64,000 bases of DNA from Patescibacteria group bacterium. GTDB lineage: Bacteria > Patescibacteriota > UBA1384 > 2-12-FULL-50-11. Below, one piece after another: positions 33,067-62,114 of this stretch. The stretch's first letter is position 1; every line of letters begins with the position of its first letter. A model generated the notes under the pieces. The model saw only the letters and a list, made by a program, of their open reading frames with translations. It ran no database searches and was not told where the DNA came from. The stretch is taken from positions 188,347 to 252,346 of the forward strand of contig BOKZ01000001.1 of assembly GCA_016861245.1 (NCBI GenBank), given 5' to 3'. The position numbers were made by a program, and so were the translations under genes.

Positions 33067-33071
33067 GAAGC

Positions 33072-38941: not shown

Positions 38942-39019
38942 TAACTGCGGAAGAGGTGAGATTACTCGCTCAGCTCGTACTTCTTACAGCCTGGTGGCTG
39001 TTCGCAGTCGAACTTTTCG

Positions 39020-39169: not shown

Positions 39170-40747
39170 ATGGCGAGGGATTTGCGCTCAGTTGTACGGA
39201 GCTTCGATCGACAGCAAGAAGAAGAGCAGGTTGCGCTCTTTGCGTCGCAGAAGGGCTTGCCGTACGTTAACCTAGTAAATTACCCATTCGTCGGTGATGT
39301 CTTAAATATTATCCCCGAAGAGCAAGCGCTTCAGTATCGACTAGTGGCGTTTATGCGACTCGGTCAAACTGTGCGCGTTGCCACTCCGGATCCGTTCCAA
39401 CAAGGCTTAGCCGAGACGATGAACGAATTGGGCGCTAAAATCGGCATTACATTCGAGCCGTATATCTGCTCAAACACCTCGATCGCTTACGCGTTGTCTC
39501 GATATCCGTTACTGGTACAAAAGCCAAAACCAACTTCGATCCAACAATCGACAAAAGAAGAATTCGCTACTCAGATTACCGGCCTTAAAGATCTCCAGGC
39601 AGCGATCGGTCGGGTATCCACTAGTGAGTTATTAGATACGATCATCTCCGGTGCGGTTGCGCTTGAGGCGTCGGATATCCACTTCGAGCCGATGGAGTCT
39701 TCTGTCCACATCCGATTCCGTATCGACGGCCGATTACTACCGATAATCGAGATCCCTGAAAAGTCGTACCACGCGTTATCGTCCAGAATTAAAACTGCTG
39801 CCCATATTAAATTAGATATTAAGAAAGTCGCTCAGGACGGCCGAATGACGGTCAAGATCGGCGAGACTCCGATCGATATTCGAGTTAACGCCATTCCGAC
39901 AACGTTTGGCCAAACTATCGAGTTACGCCTCCTTGCTAACCACGAAATGCTCTCGATCGACCAGCTCGGTTTTGCGCCAGCAACGCTCCAGGCGATTATG
40001 CAGTCGATCGCCAAACCAGAAGGCCTTATTCTTTTTACTGGCCCAACCGGCTCGGGTAAGAGCACTAGTCTCTACTCCGTCTTACAGATATTAAACAAAC
40101 CCGATCGCAAAATTATCACCTTAGAAGATCCTGTTGAGTACCGGTTGGATGGGATCGAGCAGGTTCAGATCGAACCAGCAGGCGAGACGATTAGCGTTAG
40201 CCATAAAGGGAAGGACGGTCAGACCAACGAGCAGGTTAGCACCGGCGCCTTCGATTTTGCGCAAGCGCTTAGGGCAGCGCTGCGCCAAGATCCGGATATT
40301 ATTATGGTTGGAGAAATTCGCGATAAAGAGACCGCCGAGATCGCTGTGAACGCCGCGCTGACGGGGCACTTGGTCTTAAGCACGCTCCACACCAACAGCG
40401 CACCGGCTGCGTTTGCCCGTCTTATCCAAATGGGCGTGCCGAAATACCTACTTGCTGACGCAATTTCGCTGGTGGTAGCGCAACGACTTGTCCGTAAGCT
40501 CTGCCAGTACTGCAAGGGGACTGGCTGCGAGCAGTGCAACAACACAGGCTTTAAAGGTAGAATCTTGATCGCTGAGCACTATATCCCAGATCAACAGACA
40601 GTTGAGCTGATTAAACGAGAGGCGACGCTTGGCGAATTTGAGCAGCAATTTACTGCCGTAGGCAACAAGACGTTACTTCAAGATGGTTTGGAGAAAGTTT
40701 CTCAGGGGTTAACGACTGAAGCTGAGATTAGATCAGTAACAGAGTAA
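39170..40747 (+). CDS. GspE/PilB-family secretion/pilus assembly ATPase
   Basis: Walker A GPTGSGKST, Asp/His boxes, tetracysteine CQYC...CEQC motif, N-terminal T2SSE_N-like domain. Confidence 0.85.
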   Translation: MARDLRSVVRSFDRQQEEEQVALFASQKGLPYVNLVNYPFVGDVLNIIPEEQALQYRLVAFMRLGQTVRVATPDPFQQGLAETMNELGAKIGITFEPYICSNTSIAYALSRYPLLVQKPKPTSIQQSTKEEFATQITGLKDLQAAIGRVSTSELLDTIISGAVALEASDIHFEPMESSVHIRFRIDGRLLPIIEIPEKSYHALSSRIKTAAHIKLDIKKVAQDGRMTVKIGETPIDIRVNAIPTTFGQTIELRLLANHEMLSIDQLGFAPATLQAIMQSIAKPEGLILFTGPTGSGKSTSLYSVLQILNKPDRKIITLEDPVEYRLDGIEQVQIEPAGETISVSHKGKDGQTNEQVSTGAFDFAQALRAALRQDPDIIMVGEIRDKETAEIAVNAALTGHLVLSTLHTNSAPAAFARLIQMGVPKYLLADAISLVVAQRLVRKLCQYCKGTGCEQCNNTGFKGRILIAEHYIPDQQTVELIKREATLGEFEQQFTAVGNKTLLQDGLEKVSQGLTTEAEIRSVTE

Positions 40748-40758
40748 GTCTGACTACC

Positions 40759-40790
40759 AAAAAAGAGGGCCGAAGCCCTCTTTTCTTTTT
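40759..40790. terminator. bidirectional rho-independent terminator
   Basis: aaaaa-AGAGGGC-cgaa-GCCCTCT-tttctttttat between convergent genes. Confidence 0.65.
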
Positions 40791-40798
40791 ATACAATT

Positions 40799-41176
40799 TT
40801 AGCGTTCGCCCGTGAGGAATGTCCCAACGTAGCGCAGAACCAAGTAAGCAACGAGAATGATGATAATACCGATTAAGGCGTTAATAATCCCTTGGCGCGC
40901 GGTCTGGGCTTTACCGGCGTCACCGCCAGCGGTGATGTATTGGAAACCAGAGATAACTAAGTAAAAGAAGGCGACGATCGCAGCGATCGTTAGTACTAAA
41001 CCGATCACTTGACCGAGCAAGTTATTGAACCTGTTGCCAGCATCAGCTGCACTGGTTGGCTTAAACGGACGCAAAAAGTTAAAGTCTCCGAGCGTAAAGC
41101 CGCTGGTTTTGGCTGGGTCGCTGTTACCACCGAACTGTGCCTGCACCGTTGGTATTATGTATTCAGTTAGTTTCAT
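40799..41176 (-). CDS. VirB2/TrbC-like (T4SS-type) pilin family protein
   Basis: Two-helix hairpin with motif FQYITAGGDAGKAQTARQGIINALIGIIIIL; no type IV (class III) prepilin signal. Confidence 0.55.
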   Translation of the reverse strand: MKLTEYIIPTVQAQFGGNSDPAKTSGFTLGDFNFLRPFKPTSAADAGNRFNNLLGQVIGLVLTIAAIVAFFYLVISGFQYITAGGDAGKAQTARQGIINALIGIIIILVAYLVLRYVGTFLTGER

Positions 41177-41234
41177 TTATCCTCCCGTAATTAATCTACT
41201 CTTATTAAGAAATGAATTGTTCGCCTTGTCAAGG

Positions 41235-41603
41235 TTAGGCGTTTAAAACATTTTTTAGTAACTGCACGAGCAGATAGGAGAGCGTTGCGATAACTACACC
41301 TATCAGCGCGTACGTAATCGACTTCTTACCCTGTTCGACTTTTTTCTCATCCCCGAAAGCGGTCGTGTAAAGAAACGCCCCGTATAGCAAGTAAACAAAC
41401 GAGCCGATCGCTACGCCGAGCAGCAATAGACTCGTAAAATGGGTAATTGAGTCCGTAAGGCAGCTTGCCCCGGCGGTGCGAACCTTCTCTGGATCGGCAA
41501 TACACTCTGGAATAAGCCCGCCGCCAGTTAAAGCCGTGACACCGCTGCCGCTATCTTGCGCTGCCGCCGAACCGATCCCGAGTAGACTAAGAATTATTTT
41601 CAT
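41235..41603 (-). CDS. VirB2/TrbC-like pilin family protein (paralog)
   Basis: Signal peptide, two Cys, then FLYTTAFGDEKKVEQGKKSITYALIGVVIA core. Confidence 0.55.
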   Translation of the reverse strand: MKIILSLLGIGSAAAQDSGSGVTALTGGGLIPECIADPEKVRTAGASCLTDSITHFTSLLLLGVAIGSFVYLLYGAFLYTTAFGDEKKVEQGKKSITYALIGVVIATLSYLLVQLLKNVLNA

Positions 41604-42787
41604 GGCGCCTCCACTCTAATAACATATCTGGCTCCGGTTGAGGTCTTAATAATTACCTCGGCGGCTTCACCGCTTTGACCGTCTCCGGCGTAGCTAATAC
41701 CAAATAGTTGCGATTGTTGCCAGTTCTGGTCGTTGAAAGTAAATGTGTCTGGAGTAACAGTAACCGGTAGCTTGCCAGTTTTGGTAATCGTCACCGTCAC
41801 TTCTCCTGCCGGTGCGCTTAGCTGTAAGGCGAACTGTTCTGAGATCTGTGTGGTTAAGTCTCGAAGTAGAACGGTGCTTGGCGAGAAGTTGCTTGGATCA
41901 AAAACCAATATTGAGACACCGTTAGGATCGGCAGTAGCGCCAGAGGTAGCGGTGTTTTCGTTTGTAGTACTTGTGGAGTTATTATTATTGGCTGAATCAG
42001 GGATCTGAACTAGCGAGCCACGCTCGCCGATACCCGCAACGTAACGAACGGCAGCGAATGCTAGTAATGCAATGAGTATGCCAATAATCGCCCAGGTAAT
42101 ATTCTTTCGGGCTTTAGCCGTAACCGCCATATCGCCGCCAGATGTAATATATTGATAGCCGCTGTACATAATGCTAAAGAACGCACCAAGAGCGATTAGT
42201 ATAAGTAAGAGTTGGATCAACCTGTCAAACAGACCGCTTATTTCTAACTGCGAGAAACCCAGTCCCTTTAAGTCGTCAGTCGTAATGTTCTCAGCCAACT
42301 TTGTGGGATCACCGCCGCCTGAGCCGCCGGTGCCAGAACCGTTGTTATTACCGCTGCCGCCGTTATTTTCAGAACTACCTTCAACAGTAAATAGTATTTC
42401 TCGCGTCGATAAGCCGTTACCGGATATGATAATTCGCCCGCGTGCCCCGGGTTGGGCCGTCCCCTGGTACTCTAAAACAAGTCGACGACGGCGATTCCAG
42501 TCGTCTCGTGTAAAGGTTAAGTCGTTGCTGCCAGACCAGTAAAAAACGGCGGCGCCCTGGTGTCTGACTTCGAGCGTCACTGGGCTGCTCGGCGCCTCAG
42601 AGAGCGCGATATAAACCGGCCAACTCGATTGCCCAGCGTCTTTTGGCACCGTAAAACTACTTACCCCTTCTTCGCCGGTCGCTGCCTTAAAGATCCGGAT
42701 CGACGGCGCTGCCAACGCTTCGTGGGCAGGAAATTGGAGCGTAACTACACCAATAAGCGCAATGAGAGCGATAAGAATTTTTTTCAT
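41600..42787 (-). CDS. pilin-core protein fused to N- and C-terminal beta-rich extracellular domains
   Basis: Signal peptide; Ig-like domain; G/S/N linker; pilin core YQYITSGGDMAVTAKARKNITWAIIGILIA; S/T/N linker; C-terminal beta domain. 4-nt overlaps with both neighbours. Confidence 0.5.
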   Translation of the reverse strand: MKKILIALIALIGVVTLQFPAHEALAAPSIRIFKAATGEEGVSSFTVPKDAGQSSWPVYIALSEAPSSPVTLEVRHQGAAVFYWSGSNDLTFTRDDWNRRRRLVLEYQGTAQPGARGRIIISGNGLSTREILFTVEGSSENNGGSGNNNGSGTGGSGGGDPTKLAENITTDDLKGLGFSQLEISGLFDRLIQLLLILIALGAFFSIMYSGYQYITSGGDMAVTAKARKNITWAIIGILIALLAFAAVRYVAGIGERGSLVQIPDSANNNNSTSTTNENTATSGATADPNGVSILVFDPSNFSPSTVLLRDLTTQISEQFALQLSAPAGEVTVTITKTGKLPVTVTPDTFTFNDQNWQQSQLFGISYAGDGQSGEAAEVIIKTSTGARYVIRVEAP

Positions 42788-43080
42788 TGTAATCCTAGAA
42801 GCGGAATTAAAACTCGTATTAACAATAACAGCCCAAAACCAACAAGCGCTCCGACGATCATATCTTTGCCATCTTTAGCCTTACTCTCGTCACCGCCACT
42901 CGTTGCGTACTTGAATGCGCCGTAGACGATCATCAAAACGGCTAACGCCGCGGCGATATTTACTGCCAATTTAATTAGATCGAGAAAATACTCCTTAAAC
43001 GTAGTATACGTTCGCTTATCACCTGTTAACGGTACGTTGATCTCGTACGCTAGCGCCCGACTTACAAACCAGTCTAACAT
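42784..43080 (-). CDS. VirB2/TrbC-like pilin family protein (paralog)
   Basis: FKYATSGGDESKAKDGKDMIVGALVGFGLLLL core. Confidence 0.55.
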   Translation of the reverse strand: MLDWFVSRALAYEINVPLTGDKRTYTTFKEYFLDLIKLAVNIAAALAVLMIVYGAFKYATSGGDESKAKDGKDMIVGALVGFGLLLLIRVLIPLLGLQ

Positions 43081-44438
43081 TACGGTGTTACAAATATCTT
43101 GAAGCGCTCCGCCGCTGAGTCGGCGCTGTTTTGAGCGGTCTTCCCGAGTATTACAACTTGGCGGATCGCGTCTTGGAAGATCTCATCTGTCTGCTGCCAC
43201 TCAGGTTTTACAAATTGTTTTGCTGTTCTAAATTGAAGACGGACTAACTCCGCCGCTTCACTTGGCAGCTTGAGCGATGGCACAATAATTGTCGGGTTGT
43301 TGTATTTGGTCGCTGGTGGCTTATTAGTTTTTTCTGAGTATTTCTGCTGCACTAACTCGTTAGCCATGTATGATAGATAATTCCATGAGAGTTGCGGCTG
43401 CGTTGTTTCTGAGTTAACAATGAACGACCAAGTGGTGGCGTAATCAACTCGGTCTGTTTTTTCCTGTCGCTGGACCAACGGAACCACTCTAATCTCAAAG
43501 TTCGGATCTCGATTAAGTATGGTCTGTAACGTTGAGTAGTAGCCGATGAGGGCGCCTGTTTTTTGATTAACAAACGTATCGATCGGATTACCCATCGTAT
43601 CGTTCCAGGAGTAATTCGACTTATCGACTCTGGCAAAGCTGGTATAGAAATCTAGTACGTCGGTCGCCGGGAACTCGGCAACGCCGCCCTTAAATCTGGC
43701 CAAGTTAAAACCGACGTTCTTCTTGTCCTCGGTTAGAATAGCTACCTCGGCCTGAGTCATAAACGCTGTTAGCACGTCGCTTGGCGCGAACGTTGTGTCT
43801 ACTGTACCGAGTGCAATCGCGGAGCGCTGAATCGTTGCTTCCTTGCGCTGGCTAACTACTGCGCTCTGGCTTGATAGGTCGCTCCAAGTGGTTGGCGTAA
43901 CCCCGAGAGTCTTTTTTCCAGCCTCGTCAGCGGCGTTGGCGACGTTATTATAAAAATCTAAATTATAAAGCATCATCAGCGAGTCGGCTGTGAGCGGGAT
44001 ACCGTATAACTTATTCTCAAACACGTTTAGGTCCACCAGTGCTGGTTCGATTTTAGTTTTAGCTAGCGCGATCGGATCTTCCTCGGGGTTTGAGACCACT
44101 GCCGCCAAGCTTTTTGGTGCGTGCTTCGGAATCCAATCGTTTCGAACTAACCAAATATCAGGGCCGTCGCCGTCGGCGATGGCGTTAACTACACGCGCCT
44201 CGTACTCCTTGGCATCTTTGGCGTCGATAAACTCAAATTCCAAACCAACACCTGGGTTGGCGTCCGTAAAGTCTCTCGATATCTCCTGGTAAATCTTCTT
44301 TTCGTCAAACGGCGACCAGATTTTGAGCACTTTGTCTTTAGGCGCAGAGTCGCCGGCGCTCCGTACGAGAAAAATAATTAGCGCCGTTATAACAGCGGCT
44401 CCGATAAGACCAAGTAGTAATAAAACCCCTCGCTTCAT
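43080..44438 (-). CDS. extracellular solute-binding protein (ABC-type family 1-like) with N-terminal anchor
   Basis: N-terminal TM/signal, LKIWSPFDEKK...DGDGPDIWLVRNDWIP pattern typical of sugar SBPs; abuts the first pilin gene. Confidence 0.65.
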   Translation of the reverse strand: MKRGVLLLLGLIGAAVITALIIFLVRSAGDSAPKDKVLKIWSPFDEKKIYQEISRDFTDANPGVGLEFEFIDAKDAKEYEARVVNAIADGDGPDIWLVRNDWIPKHAPKSLAAVVSNPEEDPIALAKTKIEPALVDLNVFENKLYGIPLTADSLMMLYNLDFYNNVANAADEAGKKTLGVTPTTWSDLSSQSAVVSQRKEATIQRSAIALGTVDTTFAPSDVLTAFMTQAEVAILTEDKKNVGFNLARFKGGVAEFPATDVLDFYTSFARVDKSNYSWNDTMGNPIDTFVNQKTGALIGYYSTLQTILNRDPNFEIRVVPLVQRQEKTDRVDYATTWSFIVNSETTQPQLSWNYLSYMANELVQQKYSEKTNKPPATKYNNPTIIVPSLKLPSEAAELVRLQFRTAKQFVKPEWQQTDEIFQDAIRQVVILGKTAQNSADSAAERFKIFVTP

Positions 44439-44480: not shown

Positions 44481-44864
44481 CTACCCAACCTGAACCTTAA
44501 GTACTCGGGTTTTGGTTTTCTCTTGTTTTGGAATCTTAATTGTGAGAATTCCGTTTCGAAGCGACGCCTCGGCTTTAGCTGCGTCTACAGATACTGGAAG
44601 GATGTAAGAGCGCATAAACGAGCCCCAGTAGCACTCTTGGACAAAATAGTTCTGGCGCTCAACGTCTGCCTCGTTACGACGCTGCCCCTTAATTGTTACA
44701 ACCTCATCAGTAATCGAGATCTCAAGATCTTCAATACTAACACCGGCGATTGGTGCCTTTAGTACAACGTTGTCCTCATCTTGATAGGCGTCGATCGCTA
44801 GCTGACCTTCTTCTGATTCGTCTTCGAGCCACTCCTCAGTAATGTGTTCTTCTTTACGTGCCAT
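44481..44864 (-). CDS. Hsp20/alpha-crystallin small heat-shock protein
   Basis: alpha-crystallin domain, GILTIKIPK C-terminal motif; start trimmed to MARKEE (44864). Confidence 0.85.
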   Translation of the reverse strand: MARKEEHITEEWLEDESEEGQLAIDAYQDEDNVVLKAPIAGVSIEDLEISITDEVVTIKGQRRNEADVERQNYFVQECYWGSFMRSYILPVSVDAAKAEASLRNGILTIKIPKQEKTKTRVLKVQVG

Positions 44865-44911
44865 TATAGATATATTATCCACTTGGGCGTACAAGTAAGT
44901 CAAGGAAAAAT

Positions 44912-51286: not shown

Positions 51287-51575
51287 ACGACTAAGTAATT
51301 TTTTAGGAAACGACTACCAAAAGAATTACCTGCAAAAAATATATCTAGCTCAAAAACTGCAAGAGCAGATTCAAAAAATCGTACCTGGTGAGTGCACGGT
51401 GATAATTAAGAGCCAGACGCTCGTAATAGAAGGGACGTCGTCAGTGTATTTACAGGCGCTAAAACTTCACCAGCGGGCTATATACGCTCAAATTAAGCGC
51501 ATTACGCCCGAACTCTACCGGACAGAGCGTCCAAAGTTACAGCTCCGACTAAAGCGATCTAATTATTCGTCGTGA
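51276..51575 (+). CDS. DUF721/DciA-like protein (putative helicase-loading factor)
   Basis: About 100 aa; overlaps the recF 3' end by 11 nt; pattern TVIIKSQTLVIEGTSSVYLQALKLHQRAIYAQIKRI resembles DUF721; start chosen at ATG 51276. Confidence 0.4.
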   Translation: MTLERLSNFLGNDYQKNYLQKIYLAQKLQEQIQKIVPGECTVIIKSQTLVIEGTSSVYLQALKLHQRAIYAQIKRITPELYRTERPKLQLRLKRSNYSS

Positions 51576-52161
51576 AATCAATAATAGTTGCTGGTATGGA
51601 ACTCGGGACTCCTCGCTCCTTTAACCAGTTCTTGGCGGCAGCCGCGACTATATCTCGCTCTTCTATATAGCTTTTTCCGTCTTTCGGGGTGGTAAAGCGA
51701 TGTTTCACTGAAACAGTAATCGCAGTAATTGACTCGTTATTATGGGTAGCTGAGATCAAGTAATCGATTGTTTCGTGCGGAAACAGCTCTAAATAGGGAA
51801 CTTTTTTAGAAGGGTCTCCTTGGTAGAGTTTAATAAAATCGTCTCCTGAGACCGGACGGAAGTAGAGCAATAACTTATTATCTTTCCCTCTTTCAACACT
51901 GTAGCTCACCGAAACAGGGGCTGAGCCGTTGCCCCAAGCTGTTACCGAGTAGCTTCCCGGTCTCACCCTAGTGCTATACGGTAACGAGCGACTATTTTTA
52001 TGAGAGTCTTTGCTAGTAGTTGCTACTAAACCGGTTTTTATTTGGCTACTTGGGTCTATGCCAATACTAAACGGTACTGTCCGGCTGTACCAAGTAATAA
52101 GCCAAACAAGTAGCCCAAGTGTCGCGATGCCCAAGACAATAATCACTTTTTTACTAATCAT
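51559..52161 (-). CDS. membrane-anchored hypothetical protein (T4SS-cluster associated)
   Basis: Start MISKKVIIVLGIATLGLLVWLI at 52161 with GGAGG RBS; ATGA overlap with the upstream gene stop. Confidence 0.4.
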   Translation of the reverse strand: MISKKVIIVLGIATLGLLVWLITWYSRTVPFSIGIDPSSQIKTGLVATTSKDSHKNSRSLPYSTRVRPGSYSVTAWGNGSAPVSVSYSVERGKDNKLLLYFRPVSGDDFIKLYQGDPSKKVPYLELFPHETIDYLISATHNNESITAITVSVKHRFTTPKDGKSYIEERDIVAAAAKNWLKERGVPSSIPATIIDFTTNN

Positions 52162-53423
52162 GGGTAGTTTACCTCCGTAGCGGCTGGCGGCTGTAAGCAA
52201 GGAATATGGCGCAAGAATTCGTACGGGTAATACCACGCGTCCCAATTGTACGTACCGCCGAGCGTTGGCCTATTATCGAGTCGTTTTGAGATACCAACAT
52301 GAAGGTGGTGAGCCTGCTCGCCGTTCGAGTTGCGTACGTAAACACCAACTTCCGCCAACTTATCACCCTTCTTTACCTGTTGTCCCTCTCTGACCGACGG
52401 CCGTTGCAAGTGGGTGTAGTACCAAAAGATATTATTTGTTTCTCTCACAGTTACTGACGTTGAGCTCTCCCCGTCACCGTCGTTATCGACCGAGACTTTT
52501 ACAACTTCGCCATCGCTGGCGCTAAAGACTCTAGTTCCAACAGGAGCCATTAAGTCGTAACCTTCGTGGCCGGCGTAGGTACCAGTTTTATAGGTACGCT
52601 TGCTAATTACATCACCCCAACCGCCGCGACCAGCGTTTCGGGCAGCCGATTCTTCCGCTACACAGGCATAATTACCCGTAGCCACACCAGCACCACCAGA
52701 AGACTCGCACTGTACCTGATTTTCGACTAACAACCTCACAATATTTAGCCTTTTGTAGTAAGGGTTGCCGTAAGAAGGATGTTTATACGACTCCTCCCAC
52801 CGTTTGCCGCTCTCGTCGTACTGCGTCCTCATAGCTGTAGCATAATTGTAAAACAGTCGAGTATTAATATTAGTTCCAGCTGGGCTGGCGTACATATCTT
52901 CGCCCTGCATCGCCCTTCGAACAGTTTTGTAAACACCCTCTAACTGCTTTTGCCAGCGCTCTTCAGTTGAGCCGCTCAAAACATCAGAACTAGCACCGCT
53001 GTCGTAATGCTTATAGCCAAAGGCTTTTTCTGGGTGCTTGAACTCCTGCTCACCCCACCAAATAGCGATTACGATAGCGGGGTTAATCCCCTCACTCTTA
53101 CCGCGCTCTAATATACTATTAATGTAATAGTCAAACTCTTTTGCGTCCGGCGTTTCCGAACGCATTTTGTTAATCTGGCTTAATCTGTAAGAATCTTTTT
53201 TTAAGATGGCGATCACTTCGCTAGGGTTAGCGCTAATCGAGGTGTCGCTAAAAGCGCTATCGGTTAGGAAACAACCATTACCCCCGAATGAGCCAGTCGG
53301 CTTATCAATCTTTGGTCCCAAGAATGTTGCTAAGAGGATAAACGGCATAATACTACCGACGATCAAGAGAATTGCGGCAAGCGCTACTATAACAATAACA
53401 ACGGCGTTGCCCCGGCGTTGCAT
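52158..53423 (-). CDS. secreted cell-wall hydrolase with C-terminal M23 (LytM) peptidase domain
   Basis: M23 motifs GYDLMAPVGTRVFSASDGEVVKV and AHHLHVGI (HxH); N-terminal TM anchor; start at 53423 forms a TAATG overlap with the giant gene. Confidence 0.65.
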   Translation of the reverse strand: MQRRGNAVVIVIVALAAILLIVGSIMPFILLATFLGPKIDKPTGSFGGNGCFLTDSAFSDTSISANPSEVIAILKKDSYRLSQINKMRSETPDAKEFDYYINSILERGKSEGINPAIVIAIWWGEQEFKHPEKAFGYKHYDSGASSDVLSGSTEERWQKQLEGVYKTVRRAMQGEDMYASPAGTNINTRLFYNYATAMRTQYDESGKRWEESYKHPSYGNPYYKRLNIVRLLVENQVQCESSGGAGVATGNYACVAEESAARNAGRGGWGDVISKRTYKTGTYAGHEGYDLMAPVGTRVFSASDGEVVKVSVDNDGDGESSTSVTVRETNNIFWYYTHLQRPSVREGQQVKKGDKLAEVGVYVRNSNGEQAHHLHVGISKRLDNRPTLGGTYNWDAWYYPYEFLRHIPCLQPPAATEVNYP

Positions 53424-56400
53424 TAGAAGAATCCCCCGAATGCGGCGTGAACCCAATCGGTGGTTTTTGTTGAACGCTGAGTGAAGCCAAGGCCGACGCG
53501 CGGGTTATTAGCTTCGCCTGGGCCAAAAACCTCAAGTGAGCGCGGGTAGAAGTACTCCGCGTTAGCTTGCCGGAAGGTAATAACCTGTACTGGCTTATTC
53601 GCACCTTGCTGTGATGCGCCGTAGTCCATGGTGGCTTCCAGAAGCTTCCCAGTAAAGTAGCGAGACCATGCCATCCAAAGTTTCGGGTCGTTCCCGTCTT
53701 TAAACGGTACGCCGTCGTCCCAGTCAAACGGATTCTCGCCCTCAGCCGGCGTGTCTTTAACCGGTTTATTTGGGTCGTTGTAGTAATCGCCGTAGTTGTA
53801 TTCCAGTTTGTCGTAATCTGGATCAAACTGGGCGTTAGCAAATCGATCTGGCGGCGGAATTGGGCAGAGATAGTCAACGCGGTACGTACCGAATAGGTAT
53901 ATCCCAGCAGCGATAATTAACCCTGCTGGTCCGAGTCCGGCTGCCATCGCGATCGCGCCGGCCACAGCGGCGTTTGTAAACCCAGGTGGCGCCTGGATGG
54001 CCTGGTCGATCGAGGCAAAGAACGCCTGGCAGGCTTCACATGCGTTTAAGGCGATGGTGATTGCCAGAACAGTCAGGTTTGCTTGCGCTTTTGCTAGGCT
54101 GGTCCGAGCGCTGTTAACCAGTGCGTCGCCGGTGCCCGTTAAGCCGGTCAGTGCTTGGACGGTTACGTTAATACCCTGAGCTGCGGCGTGAGCAGCGGTG
54201 AGCGCTCTTGAAGCGGTAATAATACCGTTAATTGCTTGATAAAGTTGGTAAACCGAACCAGCTGGTAGTCCGAGCGCTTTATCGGCCCATTGCGTAACTT
54301 TCCCGATAACAAAATCTCTTCCTAAGTCCGTAAGAGACGGGACGACGACGCGGCCGTCAATCACCAGACCCTTATTAAAGTCGAACCCATTTTGAGAGGC
54401 GTAGTAGATAGATTTAACAAATCCGCTCGGCAGTTCTTGGATCCCAAGGGTGTTAGAGAACCAGGAGTCTAGATAGTTCCACATCCCCTGATACTCGCTA
54501 GCAGTAAAGAAGTTGTCTCGGTTACTGTTTCTTACGAATTGGTAGAAAGTCTTTACGAAGTCACTCGTGAACGGACCGAGGCCGATATCAAGCCGGCTAA
54601 TGAAGGCCCCAACTATTCCGTCAACCTCACGTGAAGTTAACTCGCCTTTATATAACTTCTCGAGCATACCTATTTGGTAGCCTGGCACGAGCGCCGCTAA
54701 TTCTGGATCAAGGTAGGCAAAGACAGCGCTTGTTAGCATTGCCGCCCGCTCTTTATCTGAGCCGCTGAACATAACTCTTGAGAAATCAACGGGTACAAGA
54801 ATGCCGGCTTGACGGAGGAACGCGTCAGAGATTTTATATTTTGTGTTATCGCGTGCGGTTTGGGTTAATTCTTTTCGAGCGCTGTCCTGGTAGAGTTTTC
54901 GGGTCGATTCGGAAAGTTGCATAAACTCGTTAACTTCCATATTTGATCCAGTTTGCTCGTTGAAGAGCGCAACCGCCGCGGCGTTAATCGCATCGCTGTC
55001 GGCAAAGTTAAGTGCGCTTCGGAGCTCTTCGTACGAGAGCTTGCCCTCTTCTGGTAGATATTTATTAGCGAACTCGCTCCACATCGCCGAAGACCAGTGC
55101 TCTAAAGCTTGACGGTAATCACCGTCGATAAAGTTCTCGATGTCGTTGACGTACTCTATTGGAATTCCGGTCGCTTTTGCTAACTTCGCGATCAAACTTC
55201 GTTTCTCGAAATCATTTAAATCGCCGCTAAACGCCCGCGTGATCTGGTTGGCTAATGTCTTTAGCGCGTCTTCGTCGAAGCCGTCGAGTTTAAGCCCGAG
55301 CGCGCCGGCGAGCTGCTTTATCCCTTCGGCAATCAACAACTTAGTGCCGGTTTGTGTATCGCCGAGCGCAAACGCTAAGAACGTATCTCTAGTGAAATTA
55401 GCTTGTCGATCGAGAAACCGTCCCACGAGCGTCACACTGAAATTTAAGGCTTTCGCCCTATCTTCCAGGGGTGCGTTCTCCCAGTTACGAATTGTATCAA
55501 GCAGGAACTGCGCTTCCTGAGTTTTGATTCTAAGTGTTTCGTCAAGGTCGAAATAGTTCCAAATTTGGTCAACACCGATATTAATAAGATTCTCACCACC
55601 GGCTTTTTTAATTAGACTCTTAGTGTCGATCGCGCCGTTCACGAACTGCTCGGTCGTACCGATCGGGACACCAAGAATTAAGTCGGTGTACTCCCATTCT
55701 TCGTAATCGCTGCCAAAATACCGCTCCAGATCGTTACCAGAAAAACTGCCGGCGCTTGGCCGATCTTTCAGATAACCAGCAGGTAGCCCAAGGCGCTGCT
55801 CAACAATCGCTTGCCCGTAGTTTCCTTGAAGATCTCCTGTTAGCGGGATAGTGGTGCCCCGGTCTAAACCAAGTAGACTTGTGATCGAGTTGCCAAACAC
55901 CTCTTGCAGCGCGATTTCTAACTTCTTCTCACCCTTAATCACTTGGTAACCGGTACCTATGTTCCAGCCGATAATATTATCAGCTTGGGCGCCGCCGACT
56001 TTTTGCAAGACGCTTAAGCCATCACCCCTAACAACGGCTTGGACATCTTGCGCCGAAAGCTGGTTCTGTGGGTCGAGTTCAAGCTCCTTATTAATAAAGT
56101 TCGTTAGAACGCCGATTGACTTTGAGTTAAACTTGCCTCGAGTTAGATCGCGGGCGCTCGAAAAATCCAATCCTGTTTGTTCGGCGATAACGCTGGCGGC
56201 GATGTTATCCTTCAAATACCCAAGAGTTATCTCCTTGCCGGCTAGCAGGTCACGTACTACGCCGTTACCGATTGCCCGGTACTGACCCGGTATTCCTTTA
56301 ACAGCTGCTTCTCTGAGAAAGTTGTAGCCGTAGTCGCGTAGTTCTGTTAGTGCCGCCTGCTGTTTAGCTTTATCTTCAGCGAAAAGTTTAGCCAAAGAGG

Positions 56401-57712
56401 CGATCGGAACACTCCGATCGATCGGGGCGTTTTCGAGGGTGATAGGCGGCGTAGTTCTGGCTCTAGTTGCAGATTCTAACGCTTGGCGCTGTTGATCAGT
56501 TAGCCGAAAAGCGTCAGCTAAAACGTTGACGCCGGCCCAAATTAGCCCCTCTGTATCGTTTCGCTGGATTTTATCGATCGTACCGGTTATCACTCCGAAA
56601 GCCGCGTCTTTTTTCTCGAGAGCGCTAAAGACGCCTTTAACCGTTTCGATCTTGTTCATATCTTCGAGTGAGTGGGTGTCTAGAAAGAGCGTCGGTAGTC
56701 CGGTAGCGTTTTCGACTGTACGCTTACCGGCACTTTCCAGTATCTGTCGCCACCCACTTCCTCGGAGTGTTCCGGGCGGAACGCCGAGTAGCATCTCGAT
56801 ATTAGCGCGGGCGATCGCGATGCGAGTGTCTTGGTCGTTGTCAGCGATCGAGAAGCCTTCGGGTAGCCCAGGAATAATTTTGTGTAAATAGCTAGCACCG
56901 ATTGAGCGTATAAGTGAATCTGCTAACGGGTCGCTTGTAATCGAGCCACCGCCAAACTCCTTGAGTAGAATATTAGCGCCGACGTACAGTAAAACATCTT
57001 CCAACCGCAAGCCCTTACCGAACTCAGCGAGAAAATCCATCTCGCCAGATTCGTTTAACATCTGCATAATTCCGTCGGTACCGAGCGTACCGGCGATCTC
57101 AGTTAAGCTTGGTCCACGTGGCGTCGGGTTTCGAGCGATACCGTCACGGCTCTGCCAAGCCACTTTTATTGGCTTAGCGCGCTGAAAACGAGTTTTGTTA
57201 CCACCGAGATGCCGTCGCTCAACGAGTTTGCAGGTTATCTTACCGACTTCAGAGATATCGACCGCCTGGCCAGTGCTGTGCGCCGAGACAATTCCGACAT
57301 CTTCTTCGATCGCGTCGAGCGATTCTCGATCGTACTTACCACGTCCGTCGGTATCGTAATTTTTGAGTATCCGTTGGGCCTTAATGTACGGTAGCCCGGC
57401 ACCGCCGAACTCCTTTGGCTTAACGAGATAAATCAAGTAGTCGGTAACCCGAACGTCAACTCGACCCTCCTCGATCGCCGCTCGATCTTGTGGCGAGAGC
57501 TGAATCTTGTCTTCCGTATCGAAGATCCACTCAAGATCGAGAACTGAGTCGGCGTCGGCGGTAACCCCGGTTGGGGCGACGTCTTCTAGTGAGTCAAGTT
57601 CCTCTTCGCTTGGTTGCGCTTGTGCTAGTGCCGTGCTTGTAACAAGAATCGGCTGGAACCCAAGCGTTAAAGTAAGAATAGCGCCAATTAATAGTTTATA
57701 AGCCCCTACCAT
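53423..57712 (-). CDS. giant secreted protein (1429 aa), T4SS-associated; function unknown
   Basis: N-terminal signal peptide (…ALAQAQP); long largely alpha/coil body; hydrophobic helices near the C-terminus (AVAGAIAMAAGLGPAGLIIAAGIYLFG); 1-nt overlaps at both ends. Confidence 0.6.
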   Translation of the reverse strand: MVGAYKLLIGAILTLTLGFQPILVTSTALAQAQPSEEELDSLEDVAPTGVTADADSVLDLEWIFDTEDKIQLSPQDRAAIEEGRVDVRVTDYLIYLVKPKEFGGAGLPYIKAQRILKNYDTDGRGKYDRESLDAIEEDVGIVSAHSTGQAVDISEVGKITCKLVERRHLGGNKTRFQRAKPIKVAWQSRDGIARNPTPRGPSLTEIAGTLGTDGIMQMLNESGEMDFLAEFGKGLRLEDVLLYVGANILLKEFGGGSITSDPLADSLIRSIGASYLHKIIPGLPEGFSIADNDQDTRIAIARANIEMLLGVPPGTLRGSGWRQILESAGKRTVENATGLPTLFLDTHSLEDMNKIETVKGVFSALEKKDAAFGVITGTIDKIQRNDTEGLIWAGVNVLADAFRLTDQQRQALESATRARTTPPITLENAPIDRSVPIASLAKLFAEDKAKQQAALTELRDYGYNFLREAAVKGIPGQYRAIGNGVVRDLLAGKEITLGYLKDNIAASVIAEQTGLDFSSARDLTRGKFNSKSIGVLTNFINKELELDPQNQLSAQDVQAVVRGDGLSVLQKVGGAQADNIIGWNIGTGYQVIKGEKKLEIALQEVFGNSITSLLGLDRGTTIPLTGDLQGNYGQAIVEQRLGLPAGYLKDRPSAGSFSGNDLERYFGSDYEEWEYTDLILGVPIGTTEQFVNGAIDTKSLIKKAGGENLINIGVDQIWNYFDLDETLRIKTQEAQFLLDTIRNWENAPLEDRAKALNFSVTLVGRFLDRQANFTRDTFLAFALGDTQTGTKLLIAEGIKQLAGALGLKLDGFDEDALKTLANQITRAFSGDLNDFEKRSLIAKLAKATGIPIEYVNDIENFIDGDYRQALEHWSSAMWSEFANKYLPEEGKLSYEELRSALNFADSDAINAAAVALFNEQTGSNMEVNEFMQLSESTRKLYQDSARKELTQTARDNTKYKISDAFLRQAGILVPVDFSRVMFSGSDKERAAMLTSAVFAYLDPELAALVPGYQIGMLEKLYKGELTSREVDGIVGAFISRLDIGLGPFTSDFVKTFYQFVRNSNRDNFFTASEYQGMWNYLDSWFSNTLGIQELPSGFVKSIYYASQNGFDFNKGLVIDGRVVVPSLTDLGRDFVIGKVTQWADKALGLPAGSVYQLYQAINGIITASRALTAAHAAAQGINVTVQALTGLTGTGDALVNSARTSLAKAQANLTVLAITIALNACEACQAFFASIDQAIQAPPGFTNAAVAGAIAMAAGLGPAGLIIAAGIYLFGTYRVDYLCPIPPPDRFANAQFDPDYDKLEYNYGDYYNDPNKPVKDTPAEGENPFDWDDGVPFKDGNDPKLWMAWSRYFTGKLLEATMDYGASQQGANKPVQVITFRQANAEYFYPRSLEVFGPGEANNPRVGLGFTQRSTKTTDWVHAAFGGFF

Positions 57713-59025
57713 CAGTCTGCTCCGTACCTCTTGGCGCCGTTAAACTTATGAGTGGTTAGTGGTCGCTCTTTAATCGTTGTGGTCTGAGAGGACGAGTCGA
57801 TAATCTTACCGTTGCCGATATAGATTCCGACGTGGTCAAATAAGGCGCCAGCGTATCGTCGTTGGGCGCGACTACCGTTCCCAAACCAGACGATGTCCCC
57901 TGGCCGCATCACGCCCTCGTTGATCCGCTCGTTACTAGCAGTCTCAGCTCGGTCAATCACAAGTCTTAATACTTTATTGTTCCAAAGAGCGGTAGTGGTC
58001 CCGACAATTGCGTTTGGTACGCCAGATTCCCATAAAGTTGTGGACGAGAACGAGGCACAGGCTAGCTTATCTGGCGCACCAGTTATCCGACAGAAGTTAC
58101 CAGTAGGCTCGCCGACATGGGTTTTGGCGTTAGCTACGATCCATGTTCCAAACGGCAACGTGCCCTCGAACTCCAACATTTTTTTCTGCAAATCGTCGCG
58201 AATCTTCATCCGCTCAACTTTATTAGAGGTTTTAAGGAGAGAGTCTAAGATCGGTGTGAACTCTACGATCTTGGCATCAATTGCGGCGACTTTATTCGCG
58301 GAGTGCTTCTGAGCGTTGCCTTTAATCCGTTGATAGCGATCCTTCTCGTCCTCAACAACCTCTTTTACTGTTTTATCGTTTGCGATCTTATCGCCCGATA
58401 ACGCTGAGAGTAGTGTAGCCTGTTCTTGTTGCGAAACGCTGGTCGGATATCGCGCTGGTCCCTTGCCAGTGTCACCACTAAATGAGAAGAGGGCAACGAT
58501 AATGAGAACTATAATTATCACTAGCAGGATAATCCCAACCGCTAGCCACACATACGGATTTTTAGCGAGAAGCTGAGTTACTAGCTTTTTTATCGCTTGA
58601 CCGATCGCTTTACCTGCTTGTTTGGCGGCCTTTTTCGTTGCTTCGCCAGCGGCTCGAGCCGCTGCTCGGGCGCTTCGCTCACCCGCCTTTACCGGTTGTT
58701 GTTCAACTCTTTTGGCAGCGCTTTGTTCGGCATTTTTAGAGACGGTCTTTTGGGCGACTTGTCGGCCGGACTTTACCTCCTCGGCAATCTGCTGAGAACG
58801 CTCTAGTTCCTTCTGATGCAACTCCTGACGCTTAGTCGCCTCTATCGGGTCCGTTTTAGTTGGCGACTCAGTGCTGCGGCGCTGTCTAATCTCATCCCAG
58901 ACTTGTTGAAGATCAGGCTCGGATTCTTCTTGTTCATTAAGCTGTCCGACGAGCTCCTCTGGGGTATCGTCGAACTCCTCTTCTGGTGTTAGTGGTGGTG
59001 GTGTTTTTGGATCCCCTCCGGCCAT
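57712..59025 (-). CDS. bitopic cell-wall hydrolase with C-terminal NlpC/P60 domain (PrgK/VirB1-like role)
   Basis: Acidic and K/A-rich cytoplasmic N-terminus, one TM helix, C-terminal NlpC/P60 signature (…GAPDKLACASF…GDIVWFGNG…HVGIYIGNGKIID). Confidence 0.6.
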   Translation of the reverse strand: MAGGDPKTPPPLTPEEEFDDTPEELVGQLNEQEESEPDLQQVWDEIRQRRSTESPTKTDPIEATKRQELHQKELERSQQIAEEVKSGRQVAQKTVSKNAEQSAAKRVEQQPVKAGERSARAAARAAGEATKKAAKQAGKAIGQAIKKLVTQLLAKNPYVWLAVGIILLVIIIVLIIVALFSFSGDTGKGPARYPTSVSQQEQATLLSALSGDKIANDKTVKEVVEDEKDRYQRIKGNAQKHSANKVAAIDAKIVEFTPILDSLLKTSNKVERMKIRDDLQKKMLEFEGTLPFGTWIVANAKTHVGEPTGNFCRITGAPDKLACASFSSTTLWESGVPNAIVGTTTALWNNKVLRLVIDRAETASNERINEGVMRPGDIVWFGNGSRAQRRYAGALFDHVGIYIGNGKIIDSSSQTTTIKERPLTTHKFNGAKRYGAD

Positions 59026-59027
59026 TT

Positions 59028-61649
59028 TTACTCACTTATTCCGTAGAGCTCTAATAATTGCTTTGGATCGGTGGTGATAATCTGGTCTTCGGTGTACGAC
59101 GATACGATTTGAATGGCAGCGCGATTATTACCAGCGAAGAACAACCCCTGCCCAACCTCAGCTTCAGTCAAAAAGAACTTTTCGCCATCAGTAAGCTTGA
59201 AGGTCTCCGCAATTTTATCGATGGCGGAGGTAGATTGTCCAAGTAGTAGTTGCGTCGAAGAGTTGTTAACGACCGACCGACCGTAGTTGGAGCTCAAAAA
59301 ATCCTCAACGTCTTGGCTAATAACAGTTAAACCGAGGTAGTATTTACGCGCGCGTTTAGCGATCGCATTAACAAACTTCGCCGAATCTTCGTAGCGCATC
59401 ATAATCCAGCCCTCGTCTAGAATCATCATCCGTTTCTTGAGATCGCTTTTAACGCGGCTCCAGATGTAATTTAACGCCATATACATCGCGATCGGCCGCA
59501 GCTCCTCTTCCATATCCCGAATCGAGAAGACGGTGACTTTATTGTTCATATCGATATTAGTTTGGGCGTTGAAGAGACTGGCAAAGCTCCCGTCGGTGTA
59601 TTTAGCGAGCCGGTTCACGAGCGACTCGGTACCCGTCATATTTTGTAGGACTGTCGTAAGGTCGCTCAGTGTGGGGGGAGTATTTGAGTGGGTGGCGGCG
59701 TCGGTGGTGATGTCGCGAAGGGCGTACGTTTCGTAGAGCGCTTTATCCAGTAGGTTATCTTCCTCTGGGGATAGGCTTCCTGCCATTAGCGCGACCAGTC
59801 CATGAACTGACGTCACTGTGGCACGCAGGAGCTGCTCGCCGGTCTCGTCGCTTCCTTCTCGATACTTTGGCAGATCGAATGGGTTAATTTTTTGCTGCGA
59901 GTTGAGCGAGAGGTTAATGTAGGTGCCGCCGACAGCTTCTGCTAAAGATTTGTACTCATTTTCTGGGTCGATCACGATTACTTCAGAGCCAAGCATCAGC
60001 GATCTAATCGCTTCAAGCTTCACGGCGTACGATTTACCGGCACCGGATTTGGCGAAGACAACCTGATTAGCGTTCTCCATTTTGAAGCGGTCAAATAGTA
60101 CTAACGAGCTGTTATGGAGATTAATGCCGTACAGTACGCCGTCGTGGTGAGACAGCTCAGCTGAGGTAAACGGAAACGTTGTTGAGAGTGAAGCGGTGTC
60201 AAGATTTCGAACAACATCCAATTGGTCGTCGCCGAGCGGTAATGTCGAATTAAAGCCCTGCTCCATCTGTAGGAGCGCTTGTTTGGTGTAAATTAGCTGC
60301 CCACCTAGGATCGCCTCGAATTGCTTAGACATTTTATTTAGTTCGTCGATCGAGGTGGCGTACAAAGTGAAGTAAAGACTCATCTGGAAAAGCCGAGTCT
60401 CACCTTTTTGTAATGTGTCGCGAAGCTCTTCGATATCGCCGACGGCAGTCTCAAGTTCGGGATTTCTCACAAGTCCTTTTTCAGCTTCTATCTGTAAGCT
60501 CGACTGGAGCTGCGTAGTTTTTCGACGAAGTTGTCCGAGCAATACGTTCGTCTCGATCGGGTAAATAAACATACTAATGTCGAGCGTTGCGTCGTAGTTA
60601 ATAATCGGTGAAAGCCAGTTTGCCTGTAAGTATCGCGGGTACGTGTAGACAAACAGCGTTCGAACAAAGAAGCTGCCGAGCTGGATGTAGTTCGGTGTGA
60701 TATTCATACCGCCTGGTGCGATAATGTCTAACACACTAGCTACACCTTGACGTAACACCTCATCGGTACTCGTTGGGTCGCTATGCTTGACGCCCAACTT
60801 GCCGAATATCTCACTGACGGTGGTCTTTTTCATCGCCGACGGGTTGGCTAGTTCGATCTCCTCCTTAGTCGGAGCGTTTGCCGTTTTTTCTGGGTTTGGT
60901 GCCGCTTGCGCTTGTTGTAACTTAACGTCGGATTGCGGTGCGTTTTTGTTTGTCGCCTCTTCGAGCAACTTTTGGCCGTGCTCCAAGATTGGGGCTGTAA
61001 ACTGTTCGGGGTCTTTCAGATGCTGGGTATACGATTCTTCTGGGTTATAGGTGTTATAAAAGAGCTCAATAATCTCTTTAGTATCTAGCTCTTTAGTTGT
61101 AACGCCGAGCGAGTTTAAGCGACCGCTAATTGTGCGCGATCGCTCCTCGAGTATTTCTTTATAACCTTTAAATTCGTCGTCACTAATTGCAGTAACGCCG
61201 ACTTTCTTTCGTTTTAATACTTTGTCGATAAGCGTTTCGTTCTCGACAGCGCCTTTAGCGGTGTGACTGATAACGATGTAGATCGACTTCTCCATAATGT
61301 TAATCTGCTCACTCAGGGTTTTGACGAAATCTAAGTAGTCCTTAGCTTGCCTTTGGAGTAATTCATTAATCTCGCCGGCACTAGCGCGTTCGACTTTATC
61401 GATATACGCCGCTAAGTCGACTCGCCGCGACTGAACGACGATTTCTACGGGAAATTTCAGCGAATTTAAAAAACTTTGATACTGATAGATAGCCACTTCT
61501 TTCTCGTTCTCGCTTTTCAAATCGAAGTTAACTGGCACGGCTTTAATTACTTTTCGTAGGCGTCCGTCTTTGAGGATGATAATACCGTCTCGAATTCGTT
61601 CGATCTGCAAATACTTTTGTGTTGGAGCAACTAGTGGTTTTTTCGCCAT
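59028..61649 (-). CDS. VirB4/TrbE/PrgJ-family type IV secretion ATPase
   Basis: 873 aa; Walker A FAKSGAGKSYAVK, Walker B MMILDEGWIMM, typical VirB4 N-terminal domain. Confidence 0.85.
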   Translation of the reverse strand: MAKKPLVAPTQKYLQIERIRDGIIILKDGRLRKVIKAVPVNFDLKSENEKEVAIYQYQSFLNSLKFPVEIVVQSRRVDLAAYIDKVERASAGEINELLQRQAKDYLDFVKTLSEQINIMEKSIYIVISHTAKGAVENETLIDKVLKRKKVGVTAISDDEFKGYKEILEERSRTISGRLNSLGVTTKELDTKEIIELFYNTYNPEESYTQHLKDPEQFTAPILEHGQKLLEEATNKNAPQSDVKLQQAQAAPNPEKTANAPTKEEIELANPSAMKKTTVSEIFGKLGVKHSDPTSTDEVLRQGVASVLDIIAPGGMNITPNYIQLGSFFVRTLFVYTYPRYLQANWLSPIINYDATLDISMFIYPIETNVLLGQLRRKTTQLQSSLQIEAEKGLVRNPELETAVGDIEELRDTLQKGETRLFQMSLYFTLYATSIDELNKMSKQFEAILGGQLIYTKQALLQMEQGFNSTLPLGDDQLDVVRNLDTASLSTTFPFTSAELSHHDGVLYGINLHNSSLVLFDRFKMENANQVVFAKSGAGKSYAVKLEAIRSLMLGSEVIVIDPENEYKSLAEAVGGTYINLSLNSQQKINPFDLPKYREGSDETGEQLLRATVTSVHGLVALMAGSLSPEEDNLLDKALYETYALRDITTDAATHSNTPPTLSDLTTVLQNMTGTESLVNRLAKYTDGSFASLFNAQTNIDMNNKVTVFSIRDMEEELRPIAMYMALNYIWSRVKSDLKKRMMILDEGWIMMRYEDSAKFVNAIAKRARKYYLGLTVISQDVEDFLSSNYGRSVVNNSSTQLLLGQSTSAIDKIAETFKLTDGEKFFLTEAEVGQGLFFAGNNRAAIQIVSSYTEDQIITTDPKQLLELYGISE

Positions 61650-61651
61650 CG

Positions 61652-62068
61652 TTATTGTTTTGTCTCCGGATTATCTAAAACACTTGCTAGCTCGTTAACC
61701 CGAATCGGATCGAGTGTTTTCTTTGGTTGTTGCTCAGCTTTTTTAGTTTGTTTTAATGGCTGGGATTGTTGCGCCGGAGTGTAATGCTGCCAAACTCGAG
61801 CTCGAGGCTGAGACATGTAGCGAACCATCGCCATAAAGAAAACAGGGAACGGCCGATCTTGTATCTTTATAAACGCCATGCAAAAACTAAACACTCCGAT
61901 TGGGATGGCTAAAATCCAAAAGAGAAAAGAGAAGCCACTTAGAACTAATTTGCTAAATAAAATATAGATAATTAGTCCGCCAAAAAGTAAGTAGAAAAAT
62001 TGGCTCAAGGTTAACGGACCAATAATTCGGTCCTGCATATCTATATTCTGAGGAACTTTAAATTGCAT
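61652..62068 (-). CDS. PrgI/VirB3-like small membrane protein
   Basis: 138 aa, two TM helices, N-terminal VPQNIDMQDRIIGPLTLSQFFYLLFGG pattern; directly upstream of VirB4 with a 2-nt gap. Confidence 0.45.
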   Translation of the reverse strand: MQFKVPQNIDMQDRIIGPLTLSQFFYLLFGGLIIYILFSKLVLSGFSFLFWILAIPIGVFSFCMAFIKIQDRPFPVFFMAMVRYMSQPRARVWQHYTPAQQSQPLKQTKKAEQQPKKTLDPIRVNELASVLDNPETKQ

Positions 62069-62114
62069 TTCCCCCCATAGTTACAATCTACCGTATCAGT
62101 ATACTAGGCGCCAG

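Follow-up and report, generated by a model that had tools for sequence, protein, structure and literature searches.

A solute-binding protein (SBP) gene that leads directly into four small pilin-like genes raises two questions, namely which surface machine such an operon serves and why a binding protein should stand at its head. The operon lies in a 64-kb stretch of DNA (hereafter the window, meaning the whole 64,000 nucleotides analyzed), an origin of replication (oriC) segment of a Patescibacteria-type chromosome with rnpA, yidD, and yidC on one side of the origin and dnaA, dnaN, and recF on the other. The closest relatives of the window proteins are found in metagenome-assembled genomes (MAGs) labeled Saccharibacteria/Saccharimonadales, Berkelbacteria, or "Patescibacteria group," and the MAG DTUPAT3 holds a locus that is 98% identical. 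We regard the region as probably the pilin operon of a chromosomal monoderm-type type IV secretion system (T4SS) of a Patescibacterium, itself a probable member of the class Saccharimonadia, the operon consisting of four pilins, p1 to p4, and an anchored MalE-like SBP. The genes of the operon, the hairpin at its end, and the convergent ATPase gene beyond it are as follows.

43080..44438, minus strand: MalE-like (family 1) SBP, 452 amino acids, first gene of the operon
42784..43080, minus strand: pil1, p1-class VirB2-like pilin, 98 amino acids (PF18895, 41.9 bits)
41600..42787, minus strand: pil2, p2-class decorated pilin, 395 amino acids (PF18895, 24.3 bits)
41235..41603, minus strand: pil3, p3-class pilin, 122 amino acids (PF18895, 36.2 bits)
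40799..41176, minus strand: pil4, p4-class pilin, 125 amino acids (PF18895, 36.5 bits; PF04956, 19.6 bits)
40761..40784: hairpin rich in G+C, with an A-run and a T-run at its flanks, separating the stop codons of pil4 and PilB
39170..40747, plus strand: PilB/GspE-family ATPase, 525 amino acids (PF00437, 392.2 bits; PF05157 (MshEN), 35 bits; Walker A motif GPTGSGKST)

The SBP and the four pilins form a single minus-strand operon of five genes that runs from 44438 to 40799 in the order SBP, pil1, pil2, pil3, pil4, and all six open reading frames (ORFs) described in the initial annotation, the ATPase included, are present at these coordinates. The same annotation held the four pilin genes to be translationally coupled. 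This is so for pil1/pil2 and pil2/pil3, which overlap by 4 nt at an ATGA in each case, and the coupling extends to the SBP/pil1 junction, where the overlap is 1 nt (TAATG), but pil3 and pil4 are separated by a gap of 58 nt, with a GGAGG ribosome-binding site upstream of pil4. The hairpin at 40761..40784 resembles a bidirectional terminator. A promoter scan returned 9 candidates against 6.3 ± 1.9 expected in shuffled sequence, showing no enrichment.

The first step is to ask to which pilin class the four proteins belong. Against a gathering cut-off of 26.6 bits for PF18895 (T4SS_pilin), pil1, pil3, and pil4 are clear T4SS-type, VirB2-like members, whereas pil2 scores just under the cut-off, although its close homologues are annotated with PF18895. 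The TrbC family (PF04956, cut-off 27.9 bits), which had been named as a second possible home, is not supported, the best match being the sub-threshold one of pil4 and the other three pilins giving none at E ≤ 0.1. All four are also sub-threshold for the NCBIfam family NF045849 (Mbov_0395 family), at 19.9 to 30.6 bits against a cut-off of 40. These last matches hint that VirB2-like proteins among monoderm-type T4SSs extend beyond Patescibacteria. Hydropathy profiles bear out the predicted transmembrane hairpin, with two hydrophobic segments in each pilin after a signal-like N-terminus. The loop motif described earlier is real, but it has to be corrected to Y-x-T-(S/A)-(G/F)-G-D, pil3 reading AFGD; an alignment of the four pilin cores shows invariant residues both in the loop (Y, T, G, and D) and in helix 2 (I, A, and G). 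The type IV prepilin leader G-(F/M)-T-L-(I/L)-E is absent from every window ORF of at least 40 amino acids, as had been claimed for the pilins, and no further pilin ORF was found in the window. Judged by their sequences, the four proteins are T4SS-type (VirB2-like, PF18895) pilins and not type IV pilins.

The gene at the head of the array had been described as encoding an anchored protein like a family-1 SBP, and this description is supported. The protein carries an N-terminal transmembrane anchor (residues 3 to 26) without a lipobox and is MalE-like by sequence and by fold. Pfam gave no match for the protein itself at E ≤ 0.1; phmmer against the PDB returned 5ysb (E = 7.5e-9) together with MalE proteins, and many of its 54 homologues are annotated with PF13416/PF01547. 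The AlphaFold2 (AF2) model (predicted local distance difference test score (pLDDT) 92.2; predicted template modeling score (pTM) 0.87) places the N-terminal transmembrane helix before a complete two-lobe fold, predicted to be that of a type II periplasmic binding protein, and its best Foldseek matches are oligosaccharide SBPs (E ~1e-21; TM-scores of 0.74 to 0.81). In hhalign, the SBP profile matched a sequence that we take to be that of E. coli MalE with 97.6% probability. Several of the positions that presumably contact ligand in MalE align with conserved acidic or aromatic residues of the SBP subfamily, which we treat as a lead only. A class III signal peptide was considered for the SBP and rejected; near-clade members share the N-terminal MKRGV, but its G can vary and an E+5 is lacking.

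Whether such a protein belongs with the pilins can be asked of related loci. Species-level genome loci encoding SBP relatives were scanned with a hidden Markov model (HMM) built from the four window pilin cores, and at all 18 informative loci the SBP gene is directly followed, in the same orientation, by 3 to 8 pilin ORFs; three more contigs were excluded, as they ended at most ~560 nt after the SBP. The array is retained at the nine most divergent of these loci, where SBP identity is 24 to 28% and the flanks are unrelated housekeeping genes (gyrA, ComM-like, NTP transferase, methyltransferase), and at which no VirB4, PilB, or ABC (ATP-binding cassette) transporter gene was found. A reverse test, in which metagenome loci were fetched with a p4-like pilin profile and which is biased to p4 relatives, gave 38 informative unique loci, in 32 of which an SBP gene directly precedes the array. 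The six loci without an SBP comprise five arrays of 6 to 9 pilins, one of them laid out like that of Southlakia epibionticum ML1, and one single-pilin locus. The association reaches down to an individual pilin class. With position-specific HMMs, the first pilin after the SBP is p1-class in 25 of 27 SBP-headed metagenome arrays, by margins of +20 to +97 bits, and no confident p1-class pilin was detected in the SBP-less arrays among the metagenome loci. On this pattern of conserved linkage, we assign the SBP to the pilin module.

In the strongest competing account, the SBP works as a conventional receptor for an ABC sugar importer whose genes lie elsewhere, and its place in the pilin operon reflects nothing more than co-expression near the origin, with no mechanistic tie to the pilins. 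An intact MalE-like fold with conserved ligand-site-like residues (on the presumed contact list) is what such a receptor would display, membrane-anchored SBPs are typical of monoderms, and arrays without an SBP exist. Yet the linkage outlasts complete turnover of the flanking genes, at 18 of 18 loci and down to 24 to 28% SBP identity, the start codon of p1 overlaps the stop codon of the SBP gene, p1-class pilins are confined to arrays with an SBP, and neither the window nor the first 29 related loci yielded an ABC ATPase or permease in a motif scan, with Pfam run on selected ORFs. We consider this account unlikely. A stronger form of our own reading is that SBP-headed arrays constitute a distinct and widespread class of T4SS pilin operon in which the SBP and p1 are a physical part or receptor of a heteromeric surface structure, and this we put forward tentatively, as a possibility with the balance still against it. 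If true, the system would be an epibiont secretion or uptake pilus with a glycan-recognition or nutrient-capture head and, to our knowledge, the first T4SS pilus system to incorporate an SBP-fold protein.

Comparison with SBPs of known function shows how far the analogy with transport proteins goes. The SBP shares its two-lobe fold and N-lobe sequence similarity with MalE-like oligosaccharide SBPs (Atu4361, Lmo0181, the Listeria beta-1,2-glucooligosaccharide SBP, and Xanthomonas MalE), but identity is only ~15 to 18%, no permease or ATPase gene is adjacent, and the gene is invariably followed by VirB2-like pilin genes. SBPs also serve as T4SS signal receptors in the PrgZ/TraC proteins of enterococcal pheromone plasmids and in the ChvE-VirA pair of Agrobacterium; PrgZ belongs to family 5 and binds peptides, ChvE belongs to a different SBP cluster and acts via a sensor kinase, and both are regulatory. 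Common to these systems and the present one is an SBP-fold protein tied genetically or functionally to a T4SS, but neither PrgZ nor ChvE is co-translated with pilins, and no sensor kinase is present here.

The next step concerns the pilins themselves, which could be recent copies of one gene or long-separated subunits. Positional orthology was assessed in 11 near-clade genomes, with 110 best inter-genome comparisons per position, and the best match fell to the same position in 110 of 110 cases for both p1 and p4, in 101 of 110 for p3, and in 67 of 110 for p2, which rules out recent duplication. Pilins at the same position in different genomes are 46% identical, compared with 26% for different positions and 28% for paralogs within a genome, and position-specific HMMs recover the p1-p2-p3-p4 order in independent metagenome loci. 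The four pilins are ancient, position-specific paralogs in a fixed order, which favors non-redundant roles and heteromeric assembly. The initial annotation had offered two explanations for the multiplication of pilin genes. Surface variation is a poor fit to identities that are higher between genomes at one position than within a genome, and the other, a heteropolymeric filament, is the one that positional orthology favors.

Variation deserves to be weighed in its strongest form, in which the paralogs are interchangeable variants of one pilin that serve surface variation or host-range switching, in line with a proposal made for the VirB2 paralogs of Bartonella and Anaplasma. The p2 ectodomains do vary widely, the length at this position ranging from 93 to 915 amino acids across relatives and the 395-amino-acid form having only 7 full or partial homologues, p4 is present in 1 to 4 copies and is duplicated in some lineages, and the idea has been raised for Patescibacteria (PMC12102498). 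Strict positional orthology and the recovery of one order in independent metagenome loci are hard to reconcile with interchangeable copies, however; the three overlapping junctions imply co-expression rather than switching, and each of the six pilins of S. epibionticum is essential (PMC10633639). We judge interchangeability improbable, more so than the importer account of the SBP. A fixed set of non-interchangeable pilins argues instead for heteromeric machines over antigenic-variation cassettes.

The individual members of the set can be assigned provisional roles. The p4 class is the most conserved, with 54% identity among orthologues, and is our candidate for the major subunit. The candidate for a variable surface-display subunit is p2. 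In the window, pil2 consists of a signal peptide, a beta-sandwich, a linker rich in G, N, and S, the pilin helical hairpin (~183–253), a linker rich in N, S, and T, and a second beta-sandwich. In its AF2 model, which has a pLDDT of only 60, the signal helix leads into one beta-sandwich, the hairpin (183–215/220–253) sits between two disordered linkers, and the other beta-sandwich comes last. The flanking domains have no Pfam or NCBIfam hits and are weakly similar to each other (E = 5e-5). A fold search with this low-confidence model gave generic Ig-like and PapD-like matches; a PmoB-like match was discarded as one of topology only (TM-score ~0.18). The score of 148.9 bits that pil2 obtains on the HMM from the window cores is circular, pil2 being one of the four. 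A clear signal peptide is present in pil3. The signal-like peptide at the N-terminus of pil1 (MLDWFVSRALA, before YEINVP) is unusually short; it lacks a positively charged n-region, and there is no in-frame hydrophobic extension upstream, but the pattern W-(L/F)-V-x-R-A-x-A-Y is conserved in p1 orthologues (loci L003 and L010–L013).

The ATPase next door raises the further question of whether it drives the assembly of these pilins. The initial annotation was right to place a PilB/GspE ATPase of 525 amino acids beside the array, but the gene is a separate, convergent unit beyond the terminator-like hairpin and is absent from the most divergent loci. The protein falls under the equivalog cut-offs for PilB and for GspE (TIGR02538, 426.8 bits against a cut-off of 675), and among the window ORFs run against Pfam, none was a PilC, PilM, or prepilin gene. 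Of 21 assessable SBP-headed metagenome loci, 20 have a PilB-like gene at most 3.5 kb downstream, as do all near-clade genome loci; the gene is always convergent with the array, sometimes with 1 or 2 genes inserted between the pilins and it. Among near-clade genomes, synteny extends over the entire dnaA-rnpA-yidC-ComF-HSP20-SBP-pilins-PilB block, so the adjacency of PilB has no independent weight there; in the wider group, HSP20 is conserved alongside PilB; and at the nine most divergent SBP-headed genome loci, PilB is absent while the SBP and pilins persist. Convergent orientation, the intervening terminator-like site, block synteny, and loss from the most divergent loci led us to reject PilB as a component of the system. 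A functional link between PilB and the pilins is unsupported, and the ATPase belongs most likely to a type IV pilus system whose genes are located elsewhere.

It is very hard to credit that the SBP, the pilin-like proteins, and the PilB-like ATPase together form a T4SS-independent, bindosome-like surface assembly analogous to archaeal Bas, which mounts sugar-binding proteins on the cell surface. In favor of this account, the convergent ATPase gene recurs at the frequency just given despite insertions, no PilC or prepilin gene was seen among the window ORFs examined, and the MKRGV N-terminus of the SBP is well conserved. Against it, the ATPase gene is encoded on the other strand, beyond a terminator, and is missing from the nine most divergent SBP-headed genome loci; where it does occur, HSP20 is retained as well, as is the entire dnaA-to-PilB block in the closest relatives, so that lineage synteny explains much of the recurrence. 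In addition, the pilins are VirB2-type and not class III, the SBP has no prepilin-type motif, and the NCBIfam BasE match is weak at 44 bits. What Bas shares with the present locus is a PilB-like ATPase encoded alongside sugar-binding and small pilin-like proteins; it differs in relying on type IV pilin-like proteins and on class III signal peptides, the pilins here being VirB2-type and the ATPase convergent and sometimes absent.

Across the origin lies a monoderm-type T4SS cluster on the minus strand, with the following members.

51559..63948, minus strand: extent of the monoderm-type T4SS cluster
61652-62068, minus strand: PrgI/VirB3
59028-61649, minus strand: VirB4 (NF045971, 388.8 bits against a cut-off of 325)
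57712-59025, minus strand: protein with transmembrane segment and NlpC/P60 domain
53423-57712, minus strand: 1429-amino-acid protein without a Pfam or NCBIfam hit, between the M23 peptidase gene and the gene for the NlpC/P60 protein
52158-53456, minus strand: M23 peptidase

The VirB4 gene had been placed 9 kb from the array across the origin. It is indeed on the other side of oriC, but its distance from the operon start is 14.6 kb, and the ORF at ~9 kb from the operon is that of the 1429-amino-acid protein. Against the Mycoplasma-type VirB4 model NF045975, VirB4 scores 288.3 bits, below the cut-off of 590. The cluster also holds small ORFs of unknown function, and no relaxase or coupling-protein domain was detected among the ORFs scanned in it. 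The T4SS cluster of S. epibionticum ML1 encodes unannotated proteins of 998 to 1113 amino acids, one of which has a weak VirB6-like structural match. We presume the cluster at 51559..63948 to be the cognate T4SS of the pilin operon.

Under our preferred interpretation as a T4SS pilin operon, the pilins would be co-expressed as a set in defined stoichiometry and inserted into the membrane by Sec, each as a helical hairpin whose two ends face outward, and the VirB4/VirB3/VirB6-type machine across oriC would extract them into a heteromeric surface filament or conduit that touches the host bacterium. In such a structure, p4 would probably be the main building block, p2 would show lineage-variable Ig-like domains on the outside, and p1 and the SBP could act as a dedicated pair that confers carbohydrate recognition, be it for adhesion to or sensing of host envelope glycans or for the capture of host saccharides. 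The T4SS and its pilin array are essential for host-dependent growth of the one genetically tractable Patescibacterium (PMC10633639), and the locus offers handles on such a system in the SBP as candidate host-glycan receptor or nutrient catcher, p4 as candidate major subunit, and p2 as candidate display subunit.

Several points weigh against this interpretation and keep us from stating it more firmly. No VirB2-type filament has been demonstrated experimentally in any Patescibacterium, and in the divergent loci VirB4 is missing from the 7 kb around the array. The short signal-like N-terminus leaves the topology of p1 uncertain, and pil2 is both under the Pfam cut-off and modeled at low confidence. 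An SBP is not generally required, since SBP-less arrays exist, the essential array of S. epibionticum among them. Finally, the SBP looks like an ordinary, intact, transport-type protein, and a permease for it could be encoded elsewhere in the genome.

How much of this is new depends on what is already known of such arrays. VirB2-like pilins have been reported in 1,948 Patescibacteria assemblies, with 441 arrays of 2 to 11 pilin genes at ~25% identity in 383 of the Patescibacteria assemblies; Microgenomatia and Saccharimonadia show an enrichment of arrays, and T4SS genes are often located close to dnaA (PMC12102498). That survey defined an array as at least two VirB2-like genes in tandem, or split by one non-pilin gene, in a genome with VirB4, and the locus described here has four adjacent pilin genes, a VirB4 gene in the window, and Patescibacteria MAGs as its closest genomes. 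In S. epibionticum ML1, the T4SS is essential, including a six-pilin array (SEML1_0014-0019) whose members are all individually essential, and the array is followed by Hsp20, ComF, and tRNA-Ser, that Hsp20 itself scoring as essential (PMC10633639). Tandem VirB2-like arrays near dnaA are thus published (PMC12102498, PMC10633639), and the array as such, which the initial annotation had singled out, is already known. No SBP is mentioned in the accessible parts of the text and supplements of PMC12102498 or of the main text of PMC10633639, and the solute-binding hits shown in the available supplementary tables of PMC10633639 are unrelated transport genes elsewhere in the genome. Our literature search, whose incomplete coverage makes it no proof that the link is unpublished, found no connection between the VirB2-pilin T4SSs of Saccharibacteria or the candidate phyla radiation (CPR) and a solute- or substrate-binding protein. 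It is plausible that the SBP-headed, fixed-order layout is an undescribed variant of a known array.

The likeness to the published arrays of S. epibionticum ML1 and Nanosynbacter lyticus TM7x is close. Those arrays and the present one have tandem PF18895 pilins with ~25 to 28% paralog identity, located on the chromosome near dnaA and near a monoderm-type VirB4/PrgI cluster in which no relaxase was detected, and ML1 shares the Hsp20-ComF-tRNA-Ser neighbors. The present array differs from that of ML1 in being headed by an SBP, in having four pilins in fixed order with a decorated p2, and in the position of oriC between the array and the VirB4 cluster, whereas ML1 has six pilins, no SBP, and an array that directly follows the VirB6-like gene. 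With the VirB2/TrbC/TraA pilins of Gram-negative bacteria, the four proteins share small size, a signal peptide, a two-helix hairpin with a short basic loop, and association with a VirB4 ATPase; they differ in matching PF04956 at best below its threshold, in the monoderm host, in the lack of any VirB5, VirB7, VirB9, or VirB10 detected here, and in that several obligatory paralogs take the place of one major pilin. The pilin-like protein of Mycoplasma integrative and conjugative elements (NF045849) is comparable as a pilin-like protein with two transmembrane segments from monoderm MPF-FATA-type systems, but all four pilins are below the cut-off of this family and are not members of it.

The immediate neighbors of the operon and of the ATPase gene include the following.

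44481..44903, minus strand: HSP20 gene (PF00011, 73 bits), 42 nt upstream of the SBP gene and on the same strand
44912-45595: ComF, beyond HSP20
45658-45745: tRNA-Ser, beyond ComF
39019-39106: tRNA-Ser, between the gene for the 241-amino-acid protein and PilB
38058-38783, plus strand: 241-amino-acid protein (u241) with a hydrophobic signal-like N-terminus and no family hit

HSP20 is a conserved neighbor upstream of the SBP-pilin operon (loci L003, L005, L007, L052, L058, L070, and L103) and may be co-transcribed with it; a chaperone link from HSP20 to pilin biogenesis is possible. The gene for the 241-amino-acid protein is conserved at its position next to PilB throughout the near clade.

In other lineages, the operon has further flanking genes that the window lacks. 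A sugar-nucleotidyltransferase gene (PF00483), absent from the window, lies directly upstream of the SBP gene in L003 (7127-7996), L008 (2433-3293), L021 (6053-6952), and L023 (5975-6871), and ORFs of ~290 amino acids, which match it in size, occupy the same place in L052, L058, L062, L066, L070, and L103, divergent relatives among them. After the last pilin, 1 or 2 large same-strand ORFs of ~499 and ~415 amino acids occur in L062, L070, L087, and L103; L008 has a 495-amino-acid ORF without a Pfam hit after its last pilin (7005-8492), and the window has no such ORF at that position. These large ORFs may be extra module components in the lineages that carry them.

Farther from the operon, four consecutive minus-strand ORFs of 716, 115, 479, and 746 amino acids, essentially without Pfam hits, occupy 22839-28923, within a GC-poor stretch (0.41 to 0.43 between positions ~24 kb and ~34 kb, against ~0.49 to 0.51 in most of the remaining window). 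They adjoin a block of glycosyltransferase, epimerase, and flippase genes at 28904-35323, with which they may form a variable surface-polysaccharide island.

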